Assembly (NCBI GenBank): GCA_030613245.1
Contig: JAUWMI010000004.1
Span: 32,610 to 96,609 of the forward strand
From: Candidatus Sumerlaeota bacterium
Lineage (GTDB): Bacteria > Sumerlaeota > Sumerlaeia > MWCT01 > JAUWMI01
DNA: 64,000 bases
Reading direction: 5' to 3'
Below the pieces are notes generated by a model that saw nothing but the letters and a program-made list of their open reading frames with translations, did not search any database and had not been told where the DNA came from. The position numbers and the translations under genes were made by a program. Below are positions 18,669 through 28,238 of this stretch, piece by piece; position 1 is the first letter of the stretch; every line of letters starts with the position of its first letter.

Positions 18669-19472
18669 CTAACATACCACACGTCGCAGGCATGCCTCCA
18701 GCAATGCCACATCCTCCTCAAGCATGGTCGGATGATCTTTCGTATAGATTCCTACGCAGACTCCGTCTTGAGAACGCAGATGCTTCGCCGCGAAGGTGAA
18801 GGCTTCCTCTGGATCATTGCGCCCTGCTGCCAGCACCTTGTAATGAATCACTGGCCGAGAGAGCTCCTTAATGACCTTGACCATAGCATCGCGATCTGCG
18901 GCATGGAACCATTCCGACCTACCCGATACATGTTCTGCCTGCTTATCTCGATGCGCAGAATTGTAATATGAGCACAGGTAAAAATCCACATCGAGATGCT
19001 CTTCCGCCCACTCAAATACCTTCGGATTGTGCCCAGCGATACCCGCAGGCATCCCTGCCTCTCTGATCTTTGTAATTGCCGGTGGCACCTCGTTGAGCCG
19101 TTTCTGCGCCAGAAGAAAATCCATCACTCCACCGTGAATAAAGCAGGCCTTTGCTCCGCCGGAAATTGCATTTTGAACTCCGCGCTCCGTGCTGCCGATC
19201 TCCGGGCACGTCTGAGCAATCCACTGGACCGCGCCCCCTGCATCCCAGTATTCAAGCAGCACACGCATAACATGATGGTCAGCCCGCCCAATGTGCGTAT
19301 TTATGCCGAGCGCCTCAGATTGACGAAAAATCTCCATAATACGTTCAGCCGTATAGTAGTGTTTCAGTTCCAGGTCAATCTCAGGCCTCTGATGAGAAAA
19401 GCCGCTGAAAGGATTCCCACCCAGAATGAACCGGCTGACCGTAAGATTCCCGATCTTAACCGTCCCAAGCAC
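18669..19472 (-). CDS. Hypothetical protein (267 aa, soluble)
   Basis: Long ORF flanked by other minus-strand genes; no motif recognised. Confidence 0.4.
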   Translation of the reverse strand: MLGTVKIGNLTVSRFILGGNPFSGFSHQRPEIDLELKHYYTAERIMEIFRQSEALGINTHIGRADHHVMRVLLEYWDAGGAVQWIAQTCPEIGSTERGVQNAISGGAKACFIHGGVMDFLLAQKRLNEVPPAITKIREAGMPAGIAGHNPKVFEWAEEHLDVDFYLCSYYNSAHRDKQAEHVSGRSEWFHAADRDAMVKVIKELSRPVIHYKVLAAGRNDPEEAFTFAAKHLRSQDGVCVGIYTKDHPTMLEEDVALLEACLRRVVC

Positions 19473-19601
19473 TTCTTCTTACCAGGCCCTTCGCCACTTC
19501 AGCACTCTATGATCTAGTGATGCCTTCTCTAAGCAAAGTCTTAATGAAGAAACTATGAATATCTTGCAGCCAGTTATTGGACTAATACGGATTCTACGTT
19601 A

Positions 19602-20741
19602 TCAAACCTTGATGTAAATCTTCTTCTTGTAAAGAGGTGTCAAGACTAGGAGCCAAAACACAATATAGCTGATGGCAAACAAGAGGGATGCCATCTTCAG
19701 GTCGTCTGACCATGGGACAAAGATATTTTGGTAAATCCAGGGCTTTAGCGCCAGCTCTCCATCCGCTATGGGTACTGTTATATACCTGCCTATTAATCTG
19801 CCTACGATTCCTGATGCGAAAAAGACTGCAATAGCGTTTGTTCCATAAATAACAAAAGGTGTTGCCCATCGCTTGTAGCCCTTTATGTCTATTAGCCAGT
19901 AACACATCGCCAGGAAATGCAGCGCCATGCCTGCCATGAAGACAACGTAAGAACTGGTCCAGATTTTCTTGTTAATTGGAAACCAGACATGCATGATCAC
20001 TCCGACCACGATTGCCACGTTTGCCATGATAAAAAGACCAGTCAACTTCTCCATCTTGCTTCGCGCAGAATGAAGCCAGTTGCCTGTCAGCACACCCAAT
20101 AGCGTCGTCGAGATCGCAGGAATCGTACTTAATATCCCTTCTGGATCAGGTCTTTCTCTGTACAGATGCCCGCCTAGAACCTTCGTATCAATATAGTCAT
20201 GGAGAAGTCCTTCCTGTCCTGTCACCGACGCTTCGTAACCAATAGGGGCGTGAAAGAGCTTCACGATTGCCCAATAGATAACGATTATCGCAAATGCCCA
20301 GAACGCACGTCCCTTCCAGCCCGTATACATAACAATAATAGCCGCGAAGAAATAACAGACAGCGATCCGCTGCAACACACCAGGGATGCGTATGGTCCCA
20401 AGATTGAATTTGGGAAACCCGGCGAGAATAAGACCCAGCAGAAAAAGAATTGCACTTCGCCTTACCACGTTGGCAAAGAGCTGGCTGCGAGTATCACCCC
20501 GCTCCAGACGCTTCGCAAAAGAAAACGTCATCGCAACTCCCACGATAAACATAAAGAACGGAAAGATCGTATCCGTCATCGTCCATCCATTCCATTTGGC
20601 ATGAAGCAGTGGAGAGTAAACGTGACCCCAGCTCCCTGGATTGTTCACCAGAATCATCATCGCAATCGTAATGCCCCGAAAGGCATCCAGTGAAACCAAA
20701 CGTTCACCTTTCTGCTCTTTGATCTGTTCGTTCATGGTCAC
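19602..20741 (-). CDS. Acyltransferase-3/HGSNAT-like membrane protein (DUF1624/DUF5009 family)
   Basis: The N-terminal RLVSLDAFRGITIAMMILVNN motif is characteristic of the heparan-alpha-glucosaminide N-acetyltransferase-like family. About 10 TM helices. Confidence 0.6.
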   Translation of the reverse strand: MTMNEQIKEQKGERLVSLDAFRGITIAMMILVNNPGSWGHVYSPLLHAKWNGWTMTDTIFPFFMFIVGVAMTFSFAKRLERGDTRSQLFANVVRRSAILFLLGLILAGFPKFNLGTIRIPGVLQRIAVCYFFAAIIVMYTGWKGRAFWAFAIIVIYWAIVKLFHAPIGYEASVTGQEGLLHDYIDTKVLGGHLYRERPDPEGILSTIPAISTTLLGVLTGNWLHSARSKMEKLTGLFIMANVAIVVGVIMHVWFPINKKIWTSSYVVFMAGMALHFLAMCYWLIDIKGYKRWATPFVIYGTNAIAVFFASGIVGRLIGRYITVPIADGELALKPWIYQNIFVPWSDDLKMASLLFAISYIVFWLLVLTPLYKKKIYIKV

Positions 20742-21606
20742 AGACTCTAGGCTCCTTTCTTGATGGTTTGCAGAACTTCAATTACCCTTTCAAAGAAAAC
20801 ATCATCCTGCATGCGACCTAACGCCACTCCTCTGCTAGCCGGATGAGGACTCTTCCTTGCAGAAAGCAGAATGAAACATGCCATCTTATTCTGGATTTGC
20901 CCTATTAAAGAAAGATGGGCTTTGTATTATTGCCAGATGGTGCCCTGAGACTTAGGGGTCGTCAAGCTTGAATTTGGCAATAACATAGAAGCGTCAAGTT
21001 TGCCGGAGCCAATATTTCAAACTATCACATCGACCAATGCCAGCATGTCGAGCCGTGACTCTACCATGAGGAACTTACTGTTTATGAACCATTTTGCAGC
21101 AGGTTATTAAGGATAAAATAGGAGTTTCGCTCAAATTAATTGCATAAAATGCATTTTGCCCTTGACATGAAGGCGATATTCGAATAATCAAGTACATTTA
21201 GTATACTTAAATTAAGATATTTAGTGTGTGCGCCCATTTTTTTGTACCTATTTCCGTCCCAGTTGTAACCGGTGTTACAAGAAGTTTTCATAATAAAGTG
21301 CATATATGAATTTAAAAAGAAGTAATATTATACTTGCATGTTAATTTTGCTCTTGATAGAATGAAATTAATATACACATAAAAAGCAAGTATATTTCGTA
21401 TACTCCTTTTTCATGTTTCTATTCTAACTCAGTGCGTATCTTTTCCTGTTCCAGCCGCAGCTCCTGCTCAAAGACATCCTGAGAAACATCCTATAACGCA
21501 TTCCAAGATCTCGCAGGAATGAAAACGATGTATTTCTTGATCTGTTTTAAGCGCAGATCATTAACTGGGTCTTTGTATTTGTATTAAACAATAACCTGCT
21601 AAATGG
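20742..21606. promoter_or_regulatory. Roughly 0.9 kb AT-rich ORF-free divergent intergenic region, with a TTGACA hexamer at 21162 and palindromes at 21141-21153 (TGCATaaaATGCA) and 21264-21279 (TGTAACcggtGTTACA)
   Basis: No six-frame ORF of 60 aa or more. Locally about 30% GC against about 50% in the flanks. The perfect 6-4-6 palindrome is operator-like. Confidence 0.4.
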
Positions 21607-21623
21607 AAAGGAGGTGATTTAGA

Positions 21624-22139
21624 ATGCTTAAGCGATACCGCTTTCTGCTGTTTGCTGTTGTTGCGATCGTAACCGTGGCAATTGGAACCAGCGCAATATG
21701 GGCTGTTTGCCAATATAAGTTTACAAAGGGCATCAGTGGCCCAATGCAGGTGTATGTCAAGGAGTACAACCAATGGGACTTATACATACACATCTCCGGG
21801 CCTGGCCTTAGCGACCTCGTAATAACAGACGTTATCCCGGCTGAATTGGACGTACTTTGGTACACGGCAGACATGGGAACTGTGTCCATTGAGGAAACTG
21901 GAAAGTCTGGCAAATCCGCGACTAAAGTTACATGGACCATCAATGGCCCCATCCCGGATAATGAGTTTACCACCCTACGCTTGCGCATTGCCACGAGACT
22001 CAGTCCATCTGGTAAGTTCTACCGGTTTACTGACGCTGGCTGCTACTATTTGAACGAAGGCGCGCATATGGAAGGCATCCGCGATTTGTTGCCGTGGTCT
22101 GATGACACAAATGGTATAACTATAACGGTACTGCCATAA
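21624..22139 (+). CDS. Small secreted/membrane-anchored hypothetical protein (171 aa)
   Basis: Canonical SD AAAGGAGGTGA (21607-21617) 6 nt before the ATG. The N-terminal hydrophobic anchor is LLFAVVAIVTVAIG. Confidence 0.55.
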   Translation: MLKRYRFLLFAVVAIVTVAIGTSAIWAVCQYKFTKGISGPMQVYVKEYNQWDLYIHISGPGLSDLVITDVIPAELDVLWYTADMGTVSIEETGKSGKSATKVTWTINGPIPDNEFTTLRLRIATRLSPSGKFYRFTDAGCYYLNEGAHMEGIRDLLPWSDDTNGITITVLP

Positions 22140-22762
22140 GATTAACTCGGTACGAGTACAAATTGCATTGTGAGGAGCCGTGGGTTTACTGACGTGTCCT
22201 CCCCTTGGCACACCTAAAATCTGGGGTTTTCAGTAATCGAGGGCAGCACTGAGTGAAAACAAGCTGCTCATGCAGAGCCGATTATGGGTCGGAGTCCACG
22301 GTTTCTCATCTCTTTTTAGAAAATGTGAGGTACTTCAGGTAAAATGCTGTCTCTTACGATTTCAACAAAGTTGCATACAAGGGGATGTTTTTTCTTAAAG
22401 GAGCGACAACTCCTAAAATTTATGGGACATATCCTAACCGATTGAAATGGTCTTTTCTTATTCTATTCTGAGGACGATTTAGTCTCATTGATGTTATTTA
22501 ACAAGCAAGTTATGCATTGTTGGCCAAAAGAGATTTCGAAAAGGCGGAGCGTTTAGTTAATCACTGCAATGTGTGGAAGGAATGGCTGCTGATGAAGAAT
22601 GAGCTATTTTTATTATACCAAGTATACTTAGTTCCGTGGGAAAACGTCGATAAATTACCAAATCTTAATGCGAGAATTTAATGAAAATCAAAGGTTGCAT
22701 TAAAAAAGTGCATTTTTTTCTTGACACGGCGAAATTGCCTGTGATAGCGGAAACCATACTTG

Positions 22763-22789
22763 CTATACCATGTAATAGATTTGGTATAG
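22763..22789. promoter_or_regulatory. Inverted repeat CTATACCA-N11-TGGTATAG upstream of the HTH-PilZ gene, with a TTGACA at 22721
   Basis: Perfect 8-bp arms lying in the long leader of the regulator gene; a candidate operator. Confidence 0.3.
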
Positions 22790-22977
22790 TAAAACGTGCG
22801 CCCTCACGTCCGTTCCTGCTCCAACTACAGAAGAACATTAAAGCTGAAAGATCCCCTTACGACCCAGCAGGCAACCTACTCAGCAGCTACAGAAAACCAG
22901 GGGTGCTGGAGAGGTATACGCATTTTTCTGTCTTACGTAAATTACTACATCCTATCAACCGGCGGGTCAGGGGAGAT

Positions 22978-23532
22978 ATGAAAACTTATTCAACCTTAGA
23001 AGCAGCCAAGAGAATTGGCGTTAGTAAATCAACATTGTTCGCTTGGTTTAAACATGGTAAAGTAAAAGACGTTGCGCGTGATCACCGTGGCTGGCGAATT
23101 TTCACCAGGGAGGATATACATCGGCTCATTGAATTCCGGCGCAATCGTCGAGCTATGCCTCAGAGCGCAGCTGGAATAGAACGGAGGCATTTTACGCGAG
23201 CGAAAGCCGCCATCCCAATCGTCTATGCACTTCGTGAAAGCCCAAAGCGGTCTGGGAAAGAGAAAATCGAAACAGTTACCGTGAATGTGAGTGGTGGTGG
23301 CTTCATGATAGAACAAAACAAGCCTCTCCAGACCGATGGCTTCCTTGATATTAAGTTCAATTTGCCTTCCCCTGCAAAGAAAGTCAAAGCAATTGGGCAA
23401 ATAAGATGGGTACGGGAAGTTAAGAAAGATCAAGAATCTACTTTTCTTCTCGGGTGTTGGTTCAGGTCAATAAACCCACATCAAAGAAAGCAGGTGATAG
23501 ATTACATTTTTGGATCAAAACCAAAAACATAA
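22978..23532 (+). CDS. Excisionase/MerR-type HTH DNA-binding domain fused to a PilZ (c-di-GMP-binding) domain
   Basis: GGGGAG lies 6 nt before the ATG. The N-terminal STLEAAKRIGVSKSTLFAWFKHGKV matches the Xis-family HTH. The PilZ motifs are RHFTR (RxxxR) and NVSGGG (D/NxSxGG), 27 aa apart. The upstream part of the 283-aa ORF (22681-22977) is probably leader, not coding. Confidence 0.7.
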   Translation: MKTYSTLEAAKRIGVSKSTLFAWFKHGKVKDVARDHRGWRIFTREDIHRLIEFRRNRRAMPQSAAGIERRHFTRAKAAIPIVYALRESPKRSGKEKIETVTVNVSGGGFMIEQNKPLQTDGFLDIKFNLPSPAKKVKAIGQIRWVREVKKDQESTFLLGCWFRSINPHQRKQVIDYIFGSKPKT

Positions 23533-23815
23533 GTATGTACCAAATTCGTTATCCACTTGTAGATGATGGCTGTTGCGCCTCTGATGTTACTCTTCTGTTC
23601 CTCTTCTCGCTGAATATCTTTTCTGACTATACTCTCCTGATGCCCAGATCCGTGTTCTTAACACAGTAGCCTGTTGAATTAGTTGTTGCTTAACCAGGTG
23701 TTTGCCTGCTGCCCTGACGGGCTGCCAAAAGTTACCTGCGAAAAGTTATCTGCAGACACCATGTAAGTTCATTTTGGTTCTGGTTTTACCAAAGGCAAAA
23801 TCGCTGGAGGATTTA

Positions 23816-24529
23816 ATGGAAAACATCTCAAGAGTTTTTCGTACGGTTGCCCTGATTGCCAGTGCTCTGTGCCTCTTACTCCTTGTTGCATGTGCTGCCA
23901 CATTGAGTTTACCAACCATGCCTCTGGATACCAGTATAAGGGGTGTGACTATCCCACAAGAGGTGCGACTTGCGCCAGGAGACGAGATTGAAATCAAGTT
24001 CTATTATACGCCGGACCTGAACGAGAGCCTGACCATTCGGCCAGATGGGAAAATTACCCTCCAGATGGTTGATGACGTCGAGGTAAAGGGTCTCACTCCA
24101 GACGAACTCAGAGTCGAGCTTGAAAGGCTATATACGCCATACATTAAGGAACCTGCTGTCAGCGTGATAGTGCGCACACTTGCCAGCCAGCAAATTTTTG
24201 TTGGCGGGGAGGTGCGCACGCCCGGAGCACTCCCTCTAAACGGTAACACTACGTTGCTCCAGGCTATTATACAGGCTGGTGGATTTATCAAAGTGAGTGC
24301 GAAATTATCGAATGTTATCGTAATGCGCCAGGACGAAGGAAAGTGGTACGGAGGAGCTTTTGACCTAAGAAAGGTGGTTAAAGGCAAGGAAAGCGATTCG
24401 TTTTACCTTAAGCCTATGGATATTGTTTACGTGCCGCGCACCAGAATTAACAAGCTTAACCAGTGGGTTGATCAGTATATCACGAGGATGATTCCAGGGA
24501 TGGGCAGCATTACAGCTTTTGCTCCGTAG
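23816..24529 (+). CDS. Polysaccharide export outer-membrane lipoprotein (Wza/EpsA-like, Poly_export + SLBB)
   Basis: Lipobox LLVAC. The Poly_export motif is PGDEIEIKFYYTPDLNESLTIRPDGKITLQMVDDVEVKGLTPDEL. Confidence 0.8.
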   Translation: MENISRVFRTVALIASALCLLLLVACAATLSLPTMPLDTSIRGVTIPQEVRLAPGDEIEIKFYYTPDLNESLTIRPDGKITLQMVDDVEVKGLTPDELRVELERLYTPYIKEPAVSVIVRTLASQQIFVGGEVRTPGALPLNGNTTLLQAIIQAGGFIKVSAKLSNVIVMRQDEGKWYGGAFDLRKVVKGKESDSFYLKPMDIVYVPRTRINKLNQWVDQYITRMIPGMGSITAFAP

Positions 24530-24567: not shown

Positions 24568-26172
24568 ATGGAGCCGATGGAATTAAAATCAAACGTTCCA
24601 GTGCATGGGAATCCGTATTTACGGAATATCTCAGAAATTCCCGAACAGTCGCGCCGTGACTTCTTTCGCATCATATTTCGGCAAAAATGGAAGATCTTGC
24701 TCTGCTTTGTCTTTGTAGTGGGTGCTGCAGCATTCATGGCTTCTCGTACATCAAAGACTTATGAATCGCAAGCAAAGATAATGGTTCGGATGGGACGTGA
24801 GATGCTTTCCGATGACCCGGTGATTCGTAGCGGAGAAGAACGCGGGACTACCAGCAGCCGGGATCAGATGGAATCTGAAATTACAATTCTGAAAAGTAGT
24901 ATCGTTGCCGCGCAGACAGTTGATGAGATTGGAGTAGAAGCCTTTCTTGCGAACGCAAAGGGACAGCCTGCAAAACTTCCTCGCACGCAAATTGCTGAAC
25001 TGGAAACCCTTTCTGAAATTGCGCCTCGCGAGAGAGTTATCAACAGGGTGATGAATAATCTCACTGTGAAAAACAGGGGAAGCATTATTTCAGTAGGTTT
25101 TACCGCAACGGATCCCTATCTCGCGCAACGTGTACTTGACACACTTTTGCGTGTCTATATAAAGCGCCATATTGCTGTGTTTCGGTTAGAAGTTTCCTCG
25201 CAGTTCTTTAGCGAACGCAGCGCTGCTCTTGCAGCTCAGCTCGCACGTAGTCAATCTGAATTCGAAGAATTCTGTAAAACGCATGGCATAATTAACATTG
25301 AAGAGCAAAAAAGCGGGCTGCTGGCTCAGGTGGATGATTTACATGCCCGCCTCTATGATATGAACGCGGAAATCAGTGGATCCCTTGCCATGATCTCCTC
25401 ATTCAAGAATGAGTTAGAAAACCCTGCAGAACGGAATTCCGAAGCTTCAACAGCGGTTCCTGGTGAGCTGGCAAGAATACTGAACACAAGGTTACTTGAG
25501 CTAATGTTCAAGCAAGCGGAGATTTCTCCAAAATATCCGGAAGATTCAAAGGAGATGCGCGATATCAGGCAACAAATCGAAGTTACACGATCATTAATCG
25601 CAACGGAGAATGAAAATGAATCTGGAGCACTTACAGGGATTGATACGGATAAGGCGGCGCTTGAAAGTGCAATGAAAAGCGAGCAAGCCCATCTGGCGTC
25701 ACTCAGGGCGAGGAAGAAATCCTTGGCTGGGGAGCTGGCGAAACGAGAAAAGGCCCTCAACGAACTTTCACCACTTGAGGGAAAGATTGCAAAGATGAGG
25801 CGTAATATCAGCCTGAGCGAACAGGAATACCTGAATTACCGTAATAACCTGCAGGCTACTGAAATCTCGGCCGCTCTGGACAGTGCACATGTTTCTAATG
25901 TTAAAATCTTACAGCCCGCTACTCTGCCAGTGACACCAGTCAAGCCAAGGAAAACGCGTATGATTGCTATCGGATTATTCATCGCATTTTTCGGAAGTAT
26001 AGGTTTTGCCTTTGTTATAGAGTATTTTGATCACTCCTTTAAAACGAATGAAGAAGTTGAACGTCGTTTGGGACTGCCCGTTCTGGCCACTATCCCGAAG
26101 GTGAGGAAACGGGAGTTATTATTAGCCACAGGCCAGCCCGGGAGAAACGAGAGGTTATTGTCTCATGAATAA
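24568..26172 (+). CDS. Polysaccharide chain-length determinant (PCP/Wzz-GumC family)
   Basis: TM helices at both ends with a long coiled-coil periplasmic region. The Wzz-type N-terminal motif is VKNRGSIISVGFTATDPYLAQRVLDTLLRVY. Confidence 0.8.
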   Translation: MEPMELKSNVPVHGNPYLRNISEIPEQSRRDFFRIIFRQKWKILLCFVFVVGAAAFMASRTSKTYESQAKIMVRMGREMLSDDPVIRSGEERGTTSSRDQMESEITILKSSIVAAQTVDEIGVEAFLANAKGQPAKLPRTQIAELETLSEIAPRERVINRVMNNLTVKNRGSIISVGFTATDPYLAQRVLDTLLRVYIKRHIAVFRLEVSSQFFSERSAALAAQLARSQSEFEEFCKTHGIINIEEQKSGLLAQVDDLHARLYDMNAEISGSLAMISSFKNELENPAERNSEASTAVPGELARILNTRLLELMFKQAEISPKYPEDSKEMRDIRQQIEVTRSLIATENENESGALTGIDTDKAALESAMKSEQAHLASLRARKKSLAGELAKREKALNELSPLEGKIAKMRRNISLSEQEYLNYRNNLQATEISAALDSAHVSNVKILQPATLPVTPVKPRKTRMIAIGLFIAFFGSIGFAFVIEYFDHSFKTNEEVERRLGLPVLATIPKVRKRELLLATGQPGRNERLLSHE

Positions 26173-26857
26173 CAAAATGATTACCAATAAGGTGGGGGAG
26201 GGAATCGTTATCAGCTGGAAGATCCCCAACCGAATGGAAGAACAGTGCGGCGCGCTAAAGCATGCAGTCATGGCTTCCATGGATGGCAGAGCCTACGTGC
26301 CATCTGTCCTGGCATTCACCAGCTGCCATGCAGGCGAGGGGGTCACAACGGTAGCAACAAGTTTTGCTCTAACGATTGCTGAGGATCGCGAACGATTTGT
26401 TCTACTGGTTGATTGCAATATTAAGGACCCCTGGTTGCACACACTTTTACAAGCACAGAGAGCTCCAGGATTGGTTGAGGCTCTTACAACAGAGTCTGAT
26501 CTTCCGTGGCCAGTACATCGCATTGGCCAGAGACTTGATGTCCTTTTTGCAGGAAAGGAGACGTTGAAGCCCTGGCGTGTTTTCGGCGGTGGCGAGTTTA
26601 GCAATTTTTTGCGAGAGGCCAAAAGAAACTACGACATGGTAATCCTTGACTGTCCGCCCGTGATTGACTCTGCCGGCTCGCTAGTATTGGCGACAAAAGC
26701 AGATGCCATTGTTTTGGTGCTAGAAGCTGAACGTACTCGGCGTGAAGTTGTACAACGCGCTCAAAGGGCAATTATGAGTTCCGGTGCTAAAATACTCGGA
26801 GTCGTTCTGAATAAAAAGCGCTACCATATTCCCAAGGTGCTGTACAAACATCTTTGA
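26165..26857 (+). CDS. BY-kinase-like P-loop ATPase (CpsD/CapB/EpsB-type) with a non-canonical Walker A (GEGVTT, Lys replaced by Val)
   Basis: Walker A' is VLLVDCNIKDP and Walker B is MVILDCPPV. The short C-terminus has only two Tyr. It overlaps the PCP stop. Confidence 0.65.
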   Translation: MNNKMITNKVGEGIVISWKIPNRMEEQCGALKHAVMASMDGRAYVPSVLAFTSCHAGEGVTTVATSFALTIAEDRERFVLLVDCNIKDPWLHTLLQAQRAPGLVEALTTESDLPWPVHRIGQRLDVLFAGKETLKPWRVFGGGEFSNFLREAKRNYDMVILDCPPVIDSAGSLVLATKADAIVLVLEAERTRREVVQRAQRAIMSSGAKILGVVLNKKRYHIPKVLYKHL

Positions 26858-26885: not shown

Positions 26886-28238
26886 GTGAAAGGAAGAAGA
26901 CGCGTGCCATCGAGAATTCTCCGCTGGCTAATATCTGGCTCAGGAAAGCGCACAGGCATCCGCTCTGAGATTCCAGATCTCTGGAGTGCTGAGGCTTTTA
27001 ATGAGCAGCTGAAAAAGGAGAAGCTGCGTGCTGAACGGAGCAACTCGCCCTTCGTGCTTCTTGTGTTTGATGTGCGCTGCACGTCGGGGAAAAGAGACGA
27101 CTGTATCCGGAGCTTAACTTATCTGGCTAAACTGATACAAGAATGCACCAGGGCCAGCGATACGCGGGGCTGGTATCGTGAAGATGGCAAAGAAAGGGTT
27201 GGGATTATTTTGCCAGATACGTTTCGAAAAGGTGCGCTCCAGGTTGTTGAAAAAGTTGAAGCGTCTTTTAAAAGGCATTTATTGAAGGTACACAGTGGAG
27301 ACGGAGATTCGATGTGGCTGGTTTACAAGATGTATTGGTACCCTGGCAACCATAATTCTTCCGATCGAGATGATTCCCGTCTTGGTGTAAATCGGGCCCA
27401 AAGTAACGAAAACCGACCTGGGGACTCAGAGACACAGGACGCCGACTCTCAAACATCCCGCCAAACAATGGTACCCTATAATATAGAGAGTTGCTCGTTT
27501 ACAACTTCTCTTAATACAGAACAACTTCACAATGAGGTTCAAATCGTTCACCCGGGAAAATTGTTTCAGCTACTCGCATACCATCTTCCCAGATGGAAGC
27601 GCACGGTAGACATAGTAGGAGCTTCGTTAGGACTGGTCGTACTTTCTCCCATCATGTTCTTAGTTGCGCTATTGATCAAAATGACTTCCCGAGGGCCGAT
27701 TTTTTTCAGGCAAGAGAGAGTCGGCTACCTGGGTAAACAGTTCCAATTCCTGAAATTTCGCTCAATGCGAACGCACGCTGACGAATCAATCCATCAAAAA
27801 CATCTCAAGGAACTGATATGCAACGGCAACGGCAATGGCAACGGATCCGATAAGCCGATGACAAAAATTCGTAACGATCCGCGGGTTACAAAATTGGGGC
27901 GATTGCTTCGTGCATGGTGTCTTGATGAATTACCGCAATTGATACACGTGTTGAGAGGAGAAATGTCATTAATCGGTCCCAGGCCACCCATTCAATACGA
28001 GGTGGAAGATTATCAGGATTGGCACAAGCAACGCCTAAATATAGTTCCGGGAATTACTGGACTTTGGCAGGTTAACGGCAAGAACGCCATGACATTCGAC
28101 GAAATGGTTCGTGTGGACCTTCGATATATGAAGAATCTCTCCTTTTGGACAGATATAAAGATTTTGGCGAAGACCATTCCCACGGTACTTCGTATTGGGA
28201 TTGGCGCGAAATCTACGGCGAGTTGCCAGGAAGGATGA
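26886..28238 (+). CDS. Priming polyprenyl-phosphate phosphoglycosyltransferase (WbaP/PglC 'bacterial sugar transferase' family) with an N-terminal roughly 210-aa degenerate GGDEF-like domain
   Basis: The C-terminal catalytic domain reads ...FRSMR...DPRVTKLGRLLRAWCLDELPQL...IGPRP...VPGITGLWQVNG. The N-terminus aligns to the GGDEF fold (FNEQL..PFVLLVFDV..RASD-TRGWY-REDGKE-RVGIILPDT). A single re-entrant/TM helix lies between the domains. Confidence 0.8.
   Translation: MKGRRRVPSRILRWLISGSGKRTGIRSEIPDLWSAEAFNEQLKKEKLRAERSNSPFVLLVFDVRCTSGKRDDCIRSLTYLAKLIQECTRASDTRGWYREDGKERVGIILPDTFRKGALQVVEKVEASFKRHLLKVHSGDGDSMWLVYKMYWYPGNHNSSDRDDSRLGVNRAQSNENRPGDSETQDADSQTSRQTMVPYNIESCSFTTSLNTEQLHNEVQIVHPGKLFQLLAYHLPRWKRTVDIVGASLGLVVLSPIMFLVALLIKMTSRGPIFFRQERVGYLGKQFQFLKFRSMRTHADESIHQKHLKELICNGNGNGNGSDKPMTKIRNDPRVTKLGRLLRAWCLDELPQLIHVLRGEMSLIGPRPPIQYEVEDYQDWHKQRLNIVPGITGLWQVNGKNAMTFDEMVRVDLRYMKNLSFWTDIKILAKTIPTVLRIGIGAKSTASCQEG

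Follow-up and report, generated by a model that had tools for sequence, protein, structure and literature searches.

Transcription factors that respond to c-di-GMP (the cyclic dimer of guanosine monophosphate) are known from many unrelated families, and PilZ is the commonest receptor domain for this second messenger. To our knowledge, a PilZ domain is almost never attached to a standard DNA-binding domain, and the PilZ proteins MrkH and PlzA, which bind nucleic acid, have no helix-turn-helix (HTH). Both are listed among the PilZ proteins in a 2023 review of receptors, which lists CuxR as a cupin-domain receptor. MrkH of Klebsiella pneumoniae is a PilZ-domain transcriptional activator of type 3 fimbriae (PMC3161979; 5kec, 5ked, 5kgo), and BrlR of Pseudomonas aeruginosa is a regulator of the MerR family that binds c-di-GMP (PMC6028453; 5xbt). 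BldC, Xis, RacA and TnrA/GlnR are MerR-like winged HTH (wHTH) proteins that have no coiled coil (PMC5859096). Here we describe a gene of a Candidatus Sumerlaeota bacterium that lies on a stretch of 64,000 nucleotides (nt) of contig JAUWMI010000004.1 (assembly GCA_030613245.1, positions 32,610 to 96,609 of the forward strand; the whole stretch is called the window, and all coordinates refer to it). The gene (22978-23532, + strand) precedes an exopolysaccharide (EPS) locus and codes for a protein of 184 amino acids (aa) that consists of a short MerR-like wHTH, a linker and a PilZ domain. We consider it on balance probable, and in any case the best reading of the locus, that this protein is a one-component, c-di-GMP-responsive and probably autoregulated transcription factor for the EPS operon.

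With MrkH the protein has in common a canonical PilZ domain, which presumably serves as the c-di-GMP sensor of a small one-component regulator of a biofilm trait, and the PilZ folds match with a Foldseek E-value of 3.5e-5; MrkH is also autoregulated. The similarity is, however, confined to the PilZ domain. MrkH has no HTH, carries a PilZ-like beta-barrel (PilZN2) at its N-terminus and contacts DNA by its PilZ domains, whereas the window protein has a helical wHTH and no such N-terminal barrel. A MerR-type wHTH combined with responsiveness to c-di-GMP, the latter presumed for the window protein, is also found in BrlR, but BrlR is a MerR protein of full length, complete with coiled coil and GyrI-like effector domain, that needs no PilZ domain to bind c-di-GMP, and its overall fold matches that of the window protein poorly (template modelling score, TM, of 0.25). 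The functional logic of a DNA-binding domain that is coupled to an RxxxR/beta-barrel site for c-di-GMP and controls an adjacent exopolysaccharide cluster is that of CuxR; there, however, a cupin domain mimicking PilZ is combined with an AraC HTH, whereas the window protein has a genuine PilZ domain and a MerR-type domain. Proteins of the BldC family likewise have a MerR-like wHTH that ends before the dimerisation helix, but they lack a ligand-sensing domain. The sites of BldC are direct repeats, on which it assembles head to tail into multimers; in the window, by contrast, the best conserved site is an inverted repeat. BldC was absent among the PDB sequence matches at E<=10. The C-terminal position of the PilZ domain and the location of RxxxR in the inter-domain linker are as in YcgR, MotI and PlzA, which suggests the same ligand-induced domain closure. 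In contrast to YcgR, the N-terminus of the window protein is a wHTH without a Pfam match to PilZN/YcgR_N, and the genomic context is EPS and not flagellar. Existing names of the family are automatic, either 'c-di-GMP-binding flagellar brake protein YcgR' (JGI) or 'hypothetical protein'; the former is wrong as a functional label, the N-terminal PilZN and the flagellar context both being absent. The protein may work like the known c-di-GMP-responsive matrix regulators (MrkH, CuxR, VpsT, FleQ, BrlR) while being a member of none of their families.

The list of open reading frames (ORFs) gives the gene as a frame of 283 aa (22681-23532), of which only the last 184 codons, beginning with ATG 22978, behave like a gene. 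In pairwise DNA comparisons with the related loci L001 and L003 the substitutions in this core are distributed over the three codon positions as 23/20/83 and 26/19/64, respectively, with zero gaps. The corresponding values for 22681-22977 are 27/36/24 and 26/34/20, with 34 and 14 gap columns, and the bias for the third codon position is confined to the stretch from ATG 22978 onward. Homologues of 46-79% identity begin at the conserved ATG (for example P0004 with 184 aa and P0007 with 183 aa), and the N-terminal extensions in gene calls of other homologues, absent from P0004 and P0007, are either unrelated or missing. Because codon bias, indels and homologue starts all point to ATG 22978, the 297 nt upstream of it (22681-22977, + strand; promoter and leader) are a non-coding leader, as had been anticipated in the original prediction for the first ~300 nt of the ORF; the 184-aa gene is real and the 283-aa ORF is over-long. 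A true start at 22681 with a different N-terminal domain, which the original prediction had named as the counter-case, found no support, as the long form had zero Pfam families above threshold upstream of the HTH. A sub-threshold, overlapping match to HTH_Tnp_1_2 was obtained for aa 97-124 of the long form (E 0.25, 11.9 bits at a cut-off of 27.9). A Shine-Dalgarno sequence, GGGGAG (22970-22975, + strand), is located 2 nt ahead of the ATG, and the stretch GGGTCAGGGGAGA plus ATG is largely kept in all aligned loci, with substitutions in L001-L003.

The C-terminal part of the protein (aa 68-179; 23179-23514, + strand) is a PilZ domain. The Pfam profile PF07238 matched over its full length (profile positions 1-102) with 48.5 bits at a cut-off of 22.5 (E 1.2e-12). 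RRHFTR corresponds to aa 69-74 (nt 23182-23199) and provides the RxxxR motif R70-H-F-T-R74 (23185-23199) preceded by R69, and NVSGGG (aa 103-108, nt 23284-23301) agrees with the (D/N)xSxxG motif as N103-V-S105-G-G-G108. The presence of both motifs, which had been recognised before, is thereby confirmed by profile, although they are separated by 28 residues and not by the 27 given earlier. R70, R74, G107 and G108 are invariant in nine family members (35-97% identity). An AlphaFold model that was built with the nine family members has a mean pLDDT of 81 and shows for this part strands at residues 80-86, 96-104, 108-113, 122-127, 136-150 and 153-165 and a C-terminal helix at 167-179, that is, a six-stranded barrel plus helix. 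A Foldseek search of the PDB with the C-terminal half retrieved the PilZ domains of MotI, YcgR, Alg44, MrkH and PlzA, including c-di-GMP-bound structures.

The N-terminal domain (aa 4-50; 22987-23127, + strand) is matched by MerR_1 (PF13411) with 30.2 bits at a cut-off of 21.6, and the MerR signature GVSxxTL...RxxxGxRxF is retained. Only positions 1-46 of the 69 profile positions are covered, and in the model the helices 6-13 and 17-25 and a wing are followed by a helix of 13 residues (44-56) and a linker (aa 59-69) that is disordered (pLDDT <50); a classical MerR coiled-coil dimerisation helix is absent. The best PDB matches of the HTH by sequence and by fold are the wHTH domains of NmlR/HI_0186 and RacA, with the N-terminal 65 residues matching the wHTH of the DNA-bound MerR protein NmlR at 35% identity over 65 residues. 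No solved structure that spans both halves was found in the Foldseek search of the PDB. HTH_17 (PF12728) remained below its cut-off (20.4 bits at 27), and so did the 'excise' model TIGR01764 (18.4 bits at 28.8). Of the earlier assignment as a Xis/MerR-type HTH, the MerR part therefore stands and the excisionase part falls, also because a mobile context is lacking. The domain is a MerR-type wHTH that stops before the coiled-coil helix and is excisionase-like only in its shortness; it belongs to the class represented by BldC, Xis and RacA (PMC5859096). The identity of a classical MerR protein is ruled out by the missing coiled coil, and that of an excisionase by the hidden Markov models (HMMs) below threshold together with neighbours free of integrase or mobile elements. 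The wHTH and the PilZ domain are joined by a flexible linker of ~12 residues with the RxxxR arm at its C-terminal end.

When 1.84 billion representatives, each standing for a 50%-identity cluster, were searched with a profile, 1813 matches were obtained. Five of them (P0001, P0007, P0009, P0010 and P0011), all of metagenomic origin, span both domains, and the others cover either the HTH half or the PilZ half alone. Among 5.8 billion 90%-identity clusters, 13 combine PF13411 with PF07238; all are derived from metagenomes or metagenome-assembled genomes (MAGs), and each cluster representative is recorded from one contig. Full-length genome matches are restricted to two Candidatus Sumerlaeota MAGs (97% and 91% identity), and scans of genome and metagenome contigs gave mostly HTH-only matches, except for two Sumerlaeota MAG contigs. 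Literature searches for HTH-PilZ or MerR-PilZ, for PilZ plus excisionase and for Sumerlaeota plus exopolysaccharide found nothing relevant, although domain databases might still note the architecture, and a preprint surveying PilZ domains does not mention an HTH fusion. The architecture appears to be a very rare, so far unannotated and undescribed domain combination with a seemingly obvious function.

The gene had been placed at the head of the EPS locus, upstream of the genes for Wza, the polysaccharide co-polymerase (PCP) and the kinase, and this position is maintained in relatives: the order regulator-Wza-PCP-kinase is kept in L001 and L003 (78%), in L005 (91%) and down to 49% identity in L010, while the contig of L002 ends just past the regulator. 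On the other side the regulator is preceded by genes for MutS, SerRS, RNase H and conserved hypothetical proteins, and no integrase, transposase, phage or other mobile-element genes were present near the regulator in the loci examined. The spacer between regulator and wza (23533-23816, + strand) contains a block, TGCTGCTTAACCAG (23683-23697), that is conserved in the alignment of four Sumerlaeota loci. Its core, TTGCTTAACCA at 23686, is identical to TTGCTATACCA, the palindrome arm described below, except at 2 of 11 positions. It may represent an element of the wza promoter or a weaker second site; we regard this as a lead only. As the + strand lacks a predicted intrinsic terminator between regulator and wza, both in the window and in L001 and L010, the promoter of the regulator may also feed the EPS operon, which is the simplest model.

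Within the intergenic region of 838 nt upstream of the regulator, conservation is highest at 22666-22813 (+ strand). This block comprises an AT-rich stretch, CTTGACACGG..AAATTGCC with TTGACA at 22721-22726, a palindrome and GTGCGCCC. In the alignment of the loci 40-77% of its columns are invariant (sliding windows of 30 columns), compared with mostly 7-20% in the less conserved intergenic parts; other local peaks reach 0.33-0.53. The palindrome CTATACCA-N11-TGGTATAG was located exactly at 22763-22789, as stated in the original prediction, and forms the core of an inverted repeat TTGCTATACCA-N11-TGGTATAGTAA with arms of 11 nt (22760-22770 and 22782-22792) that is a candidate operator or, as RNA, a candidate 5' hairpin. 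It occurs at the same place in L001-L005 only, and a degenerate form, GCTATAY-N15-RTATAG, is shared by all five of the Sumerlaeota loci but by none of the other loci retrieved. A second copy was not found in the window, where the other matches with <=3 mismatches lie inside ORFs and exact TGGTATAG elsewhere is intragenic.

Two candidate promoter elements can be read in this block. TTGCTA (22760-65) and TATAGT (22785-90) are separated by 19 bp and would constitute a MerR-style promoter (22760-22790, + strand) with the dyad centred in the spacer, a geometry that is kept without indels in five loci; the other candidate consists of the AT-rich stretch and TTGACA at 22697-22726. A dyad inside a spacer of 19-20 bp between -35 and -10 is typical of MerR-controlled promoters, and the palindrome, taken as DNA, could be the operator of this protein. 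A generic sigma-70 scan called neither candidate in the window and neither in L010. A sigma-54 reading of TTGACACGGCGAAATTGCC was rejected by eye for its wrong GG/GC spacing. The Rfam scan of 22100-23900 at E<=1 gave no match and thus no c-di-GMP riboswitch or other known RNA.

Parts of this region recur in distant lineages. CTTGACAC is also located upstream of the 49%-identical homologues in L010 and L011, which have TTAGTATACCA ~50 nt past the CTTGACAC box and, in addition, a second site AAGTATA-N5-TATACTT. Upstream of the 40%-identical P0009, in L035, TTGCTATACTTG lies within the spacer of a sigma-70 promoter that agrees with the consensus at 11 of 12 positions. The 11-mers common to the window, L010 and L035 (<=2 mismatches) are found only on both arms and their immediate flanks (22757-22795); they number 7, compared with 1.95 in shuffles, of which ~3% reach 7. 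The HTH recognition region of the window protein is nearly identical to that of P0007/P0008, and a shared DNA site is therefore expected. The pentamers GTATA/TATAC cluster between 22610 and 22920 (at 22614, 22622/23, 22764, 22784 and 22914/15): 7 are present in 22600-22930 against 0.70 +/- 0.90 in dinucleotide shuffles, an approximately ten-fold enrichment that was reached in 0 of 1000 shuffles, and a similar enrichment exists upstream of L010 and L011.

Some additional features of the same region were noted. The GTATA/TATAC motifs fall into three groups ~150 bp apart (22614-22627, 22764-22788 and 22914-22919), a spacing that might allow looping or cooperative binding. The first group, TATACCAAGTATAC, is an inverted repeat in its own right, and AAGTATACTT is common to it and the second site of L011. 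The promoter of L035 (positions 1-40, where the contig begins) reads TTGACT-18-TATAAT, and TTGCTA-19-TAAAAT is also readable there. In a consensus fold of the leader, CCCCU (22853-57) and GACCC (22861-65) pair with GGGUC (22964-68) and AGGGG (22969-73); the stretch 22853-22865 is an anti-Shine-Dalgarno sequence that pairs with 22964-22973 and could mask the ribosome-binding site of the regulator. This pairing is kept in four of five loci, is partly broken in L001 and shows no convincing covariation; in the consensus fold of the whole leader, no convincing covariation was found beyond the 5' hairpin.

In PilZ proteins of known structure such as YcgR, PlzD/VCA0042 and MrkH, binding of c-di-GMP orders the RxxxR arm against the barrel. 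For the window protein we infer ligand binding, DNA binding, the bound site, the transcription start, co-transcription and the sign of regulation, and we propose the following sequence of events. As is the case for YcgR, PlzD or MrkH, the binding site of c-di-GMP would lie between beta-barrel and RxxxR arm. The ligand would order the linker and so fix the HTH against the barrel, and/or two PilZ domains would pair via intercalated c-di-GMP. This would change the occupancy of the GTATA/TATAC-containing sites around the protein's own promoter, with TTGCTATACCA-N11-TGGTATAGTAA as the central site, and the same promoter may drive the Wza-PCP-kinase-PGT operon (PGT, phosphoglycosyl transferase), placing EPS expression under the control of c-di-GMP. 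With no MerR coiled coil present, a dyad or multi-site operator would be filled most economically by dimerisation that depends on the ligand or by cooperative binding as in BldC. High c-di-GMP usually raises EPS, so that either activation or ligand-relieved repression would be expected. A more specific version, which we put forward only tentatively and consider rather improbable, is that of a new c-di-GMP-dependent class in which PilZ takes the place of the effector domain of MerR as well as of its coiled coil: intercalated c-di-GMP would pair the PilZ domains, the dimer formed only with ligand would put two wHTHs on the dyad arms in the 19-bp spacer, and a MerR-style remodelling would switch on the promoter of the regulator and the EPS genes.

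A number of observations weigh against a c-di-GMP-responsive regulator that acts on the palindrome and the EPS operon. The distant subfamilies P0009, P0010, P0011 and P0158 are not located beside EPS genes: P0009 is found beside a thiolase operon, P0010 ahead of a Kelch/FG-GAP protein and P0011 after a hemerythrin, and the neighbours of P0158 are uninformative. The EPS link is for this reason a property of this subfamily or lineage and not of the wHTH-PilZ architecture. The 285-nt spacer ahead of wza could hold an independent wza promoter; a copy of the palindrome was not found there, so that control of EPS would have to proceed by read-through or by a different site. The protein is without an evident dimerisation element for a palindromic site, and the serine of its (D/N)xSxxG motif is replaced by glycine in four of nine relatives (P0003, P0005, P0007 and P0008). 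The 19-bp spacer between TTGCTA and TATAGT is non-standard for a promoter. Perfect inverted repeats of 8 bp with a spacer of <=20 occur 25 times in the window, and at least one such repeat is expected in the intergenic region by chance with a probability of ~0.24 (shuffles). Alone, the palindrome is thus not statistically remarkable, and it carries weight because it is conserved across the loci despite this chance-level occurrence. Finally, the stem substitutions in the five loci all keep pairing on the + strand (CG->UG->UA, UA->UG, GU->GC), with 0 of 10 pairs broken, and no convincing -10 follows the conserved TTGACA in any lineage.

The stem substitutions suit a different explanation of the palindrome, namely a stem-loop of 11 bp that would be located at the 5' end of the regulator mRNA or close to it, be transcribed from the upstream TTGACA promoter and serve to stabilise the mRNA or as a leader element; the protein would bind DNA elsewhere, if at all. 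The AT-rich stretch and TTGACA are located 35-40 nt upstream and are conserved across lineages, and in L010 and L011 a small hairpin, GTATA-N4-TATAC, is spaced similarly from CTTGACAC. The pairing is, however, drawn from five sequences, whose changes amount to a single genuine double change besides three single transitions (chance ~0.1), the lack of a proper -10 behind TTGACA counts against transcription from there, Rfam gave no match, and it is the arm sequence itself that recurs in distant lineages, in L035 as a single partnerless arm in a promoter spacer. We hold such a hairpin to be possible, with distinctly less confidence than we have in the regulator as a whole; it bears on the palindrome alone, and the protein could be a c-di-GMP regulator all the same. 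The earlier description of the palindrome as operator-like is accordingly sustained in part: the arms are conserved, but their variation in relatives also agrees fully with an RNA hairpin and the repeat alone is at chance level, and the operator is one of two live readings. We give it somewhat higher weight, since across lineages the arm is conserved as a sequence and not in its pairing alone, and in L035 it occurs unpaired. Both readings could hold together.

Two further explanations concern the protein itself. Its PilZ domain could be a protein-protein adaptor instead of a c-di-GMP sensor, comparable to PilZ/PA2960, and the regulator would then answer to a partner protein. The exchange of the motif serine in P0003, P0005, P0007 and P0008 would be in line with this, as would the scan of window proteins, which turned up no canonical enzyme of the GGDEF, EAL or HD-GYP type. 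PilZ proteins that do not bind the ligand, however, typically lack both RxxxR and (D/N)xSxxG (see preprint 10.1101/814665), whereas the window protein has both in canonical form (RxxxR and NxSxxG). Neither the arginines nor the glycines vary within the family, and the PilZ HMM score is twice the threshold; we therefore judge an adaptor very unlikely. Alternatively, the N-terminal domain might be an excisionase or architectural binder in the manner of Xis, RacA or BldC, either an organiser of DNA or a part of a mobile element, and the adjacency to EPS genes would be incidental. The closest sequence relatives of the HTH are indeed stand-alone proteins of 60-100 aa that match both MerR_1 and HTH_17, the coiled coil is missing as in BldC and Xis (PMC5859096), and several phased TATA-core motifs could suit the binding of a cooperative multimer. 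Against this stand the excisionase HMMs below threshold, the flanking genes, which in every locus are those for MutS, SerRS, RNase H and EPS with no integrase, transposase or phage genes nearby, and the gene order with wza that is kept to 49% identity. We give this explanation hardly any credence and prefer the c-di-GMP-responsive transcription factor of the EPS operon.

If that preferred reading is true, the direct fusion of wHTH and PilZ would be the simplest possible link from a second messenger to transcription and would offer a first access to the regulation of exopolysaccharide production in a phylum, Candidatus Sumerlaeota, that has no cultured model. With 184 aa the protein is small, lends itself readily to testing in vitro and might be of use as a c-di-GMP biosensor. 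The automatic label of a YcgR flagellar brake and the over-long gene call of 283 aa are corrected. The architecture should be noteworthy to specialists of c-di-GMP; mechanistically it is not surprising so far, and its functional steps are those that we infer.

The genes that follow the regulator start with the Wza-type polysaccharide export protein (23817-24529, + strand; Poly_export and SLBB). The mechanical ORF begins with TTG 23702 (23702-24529, 275 aa), whereas the orthologues have 234-237 aa; because of these lengths and of a conserved GGAGG-N5-ATG, the start was set at ATG 23817 by alignment. It is followed by the PCP (Wzz/GNVR; 24568-26172, + strand), a P-loop kinase-like protein (26165-26857, + strand), the PGT (Bac_transf; 26886-28238, + strand) and further genes of the locus for glycosyltransferases, a pyruvyl transferase and a deacetylase. 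The PGT had been described as a GGDEF-like fusion, and its N-terminal ~140 aa do match a GGDEF domain, albeit weakly (25.6 bits at a cut-off of 23.8). By eye it reads RASD-TRGWY-REDGK where diguanylate cyclases have RxxD-x5-GG(D/E)EF. The GGDEF-like part would be one with a degenerate active site and a possibly retained I-site, as in GGDEF domains of the c-di-GMP receptor type.

Upstream of the regulator, the intergenic region contains two more invariant blocks within 22171-22307, TGAGGAGCCGTGGGT (about 22171-22186) and CCACGGTTTCTCA (about 22296-22308), which are reverse complements of each other; CTCTTTTT follows. They would form a helix of ~15 bp with G-U pairs that encloses ~105 nt of poorly conserved sequence. 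The z-score of the RNA fold is only -2.0, the invariance of the arms makes covariation uninformative, and there is no Rfam match. The two blocks could be protein sites, or else a structured RNA or 3' element belonging to the upstream ORF of 171 aa. This ORF (+ strand) and two others of 267 aa and 379 aa (both - strand) occupy 18669-22139 and accompany the regulator in all Sumerlaeota loci; none of the three has a significant Pfam match. The G+C content of the 20-24 kb region is 0.44, compared with about 0.50 in the flanks.

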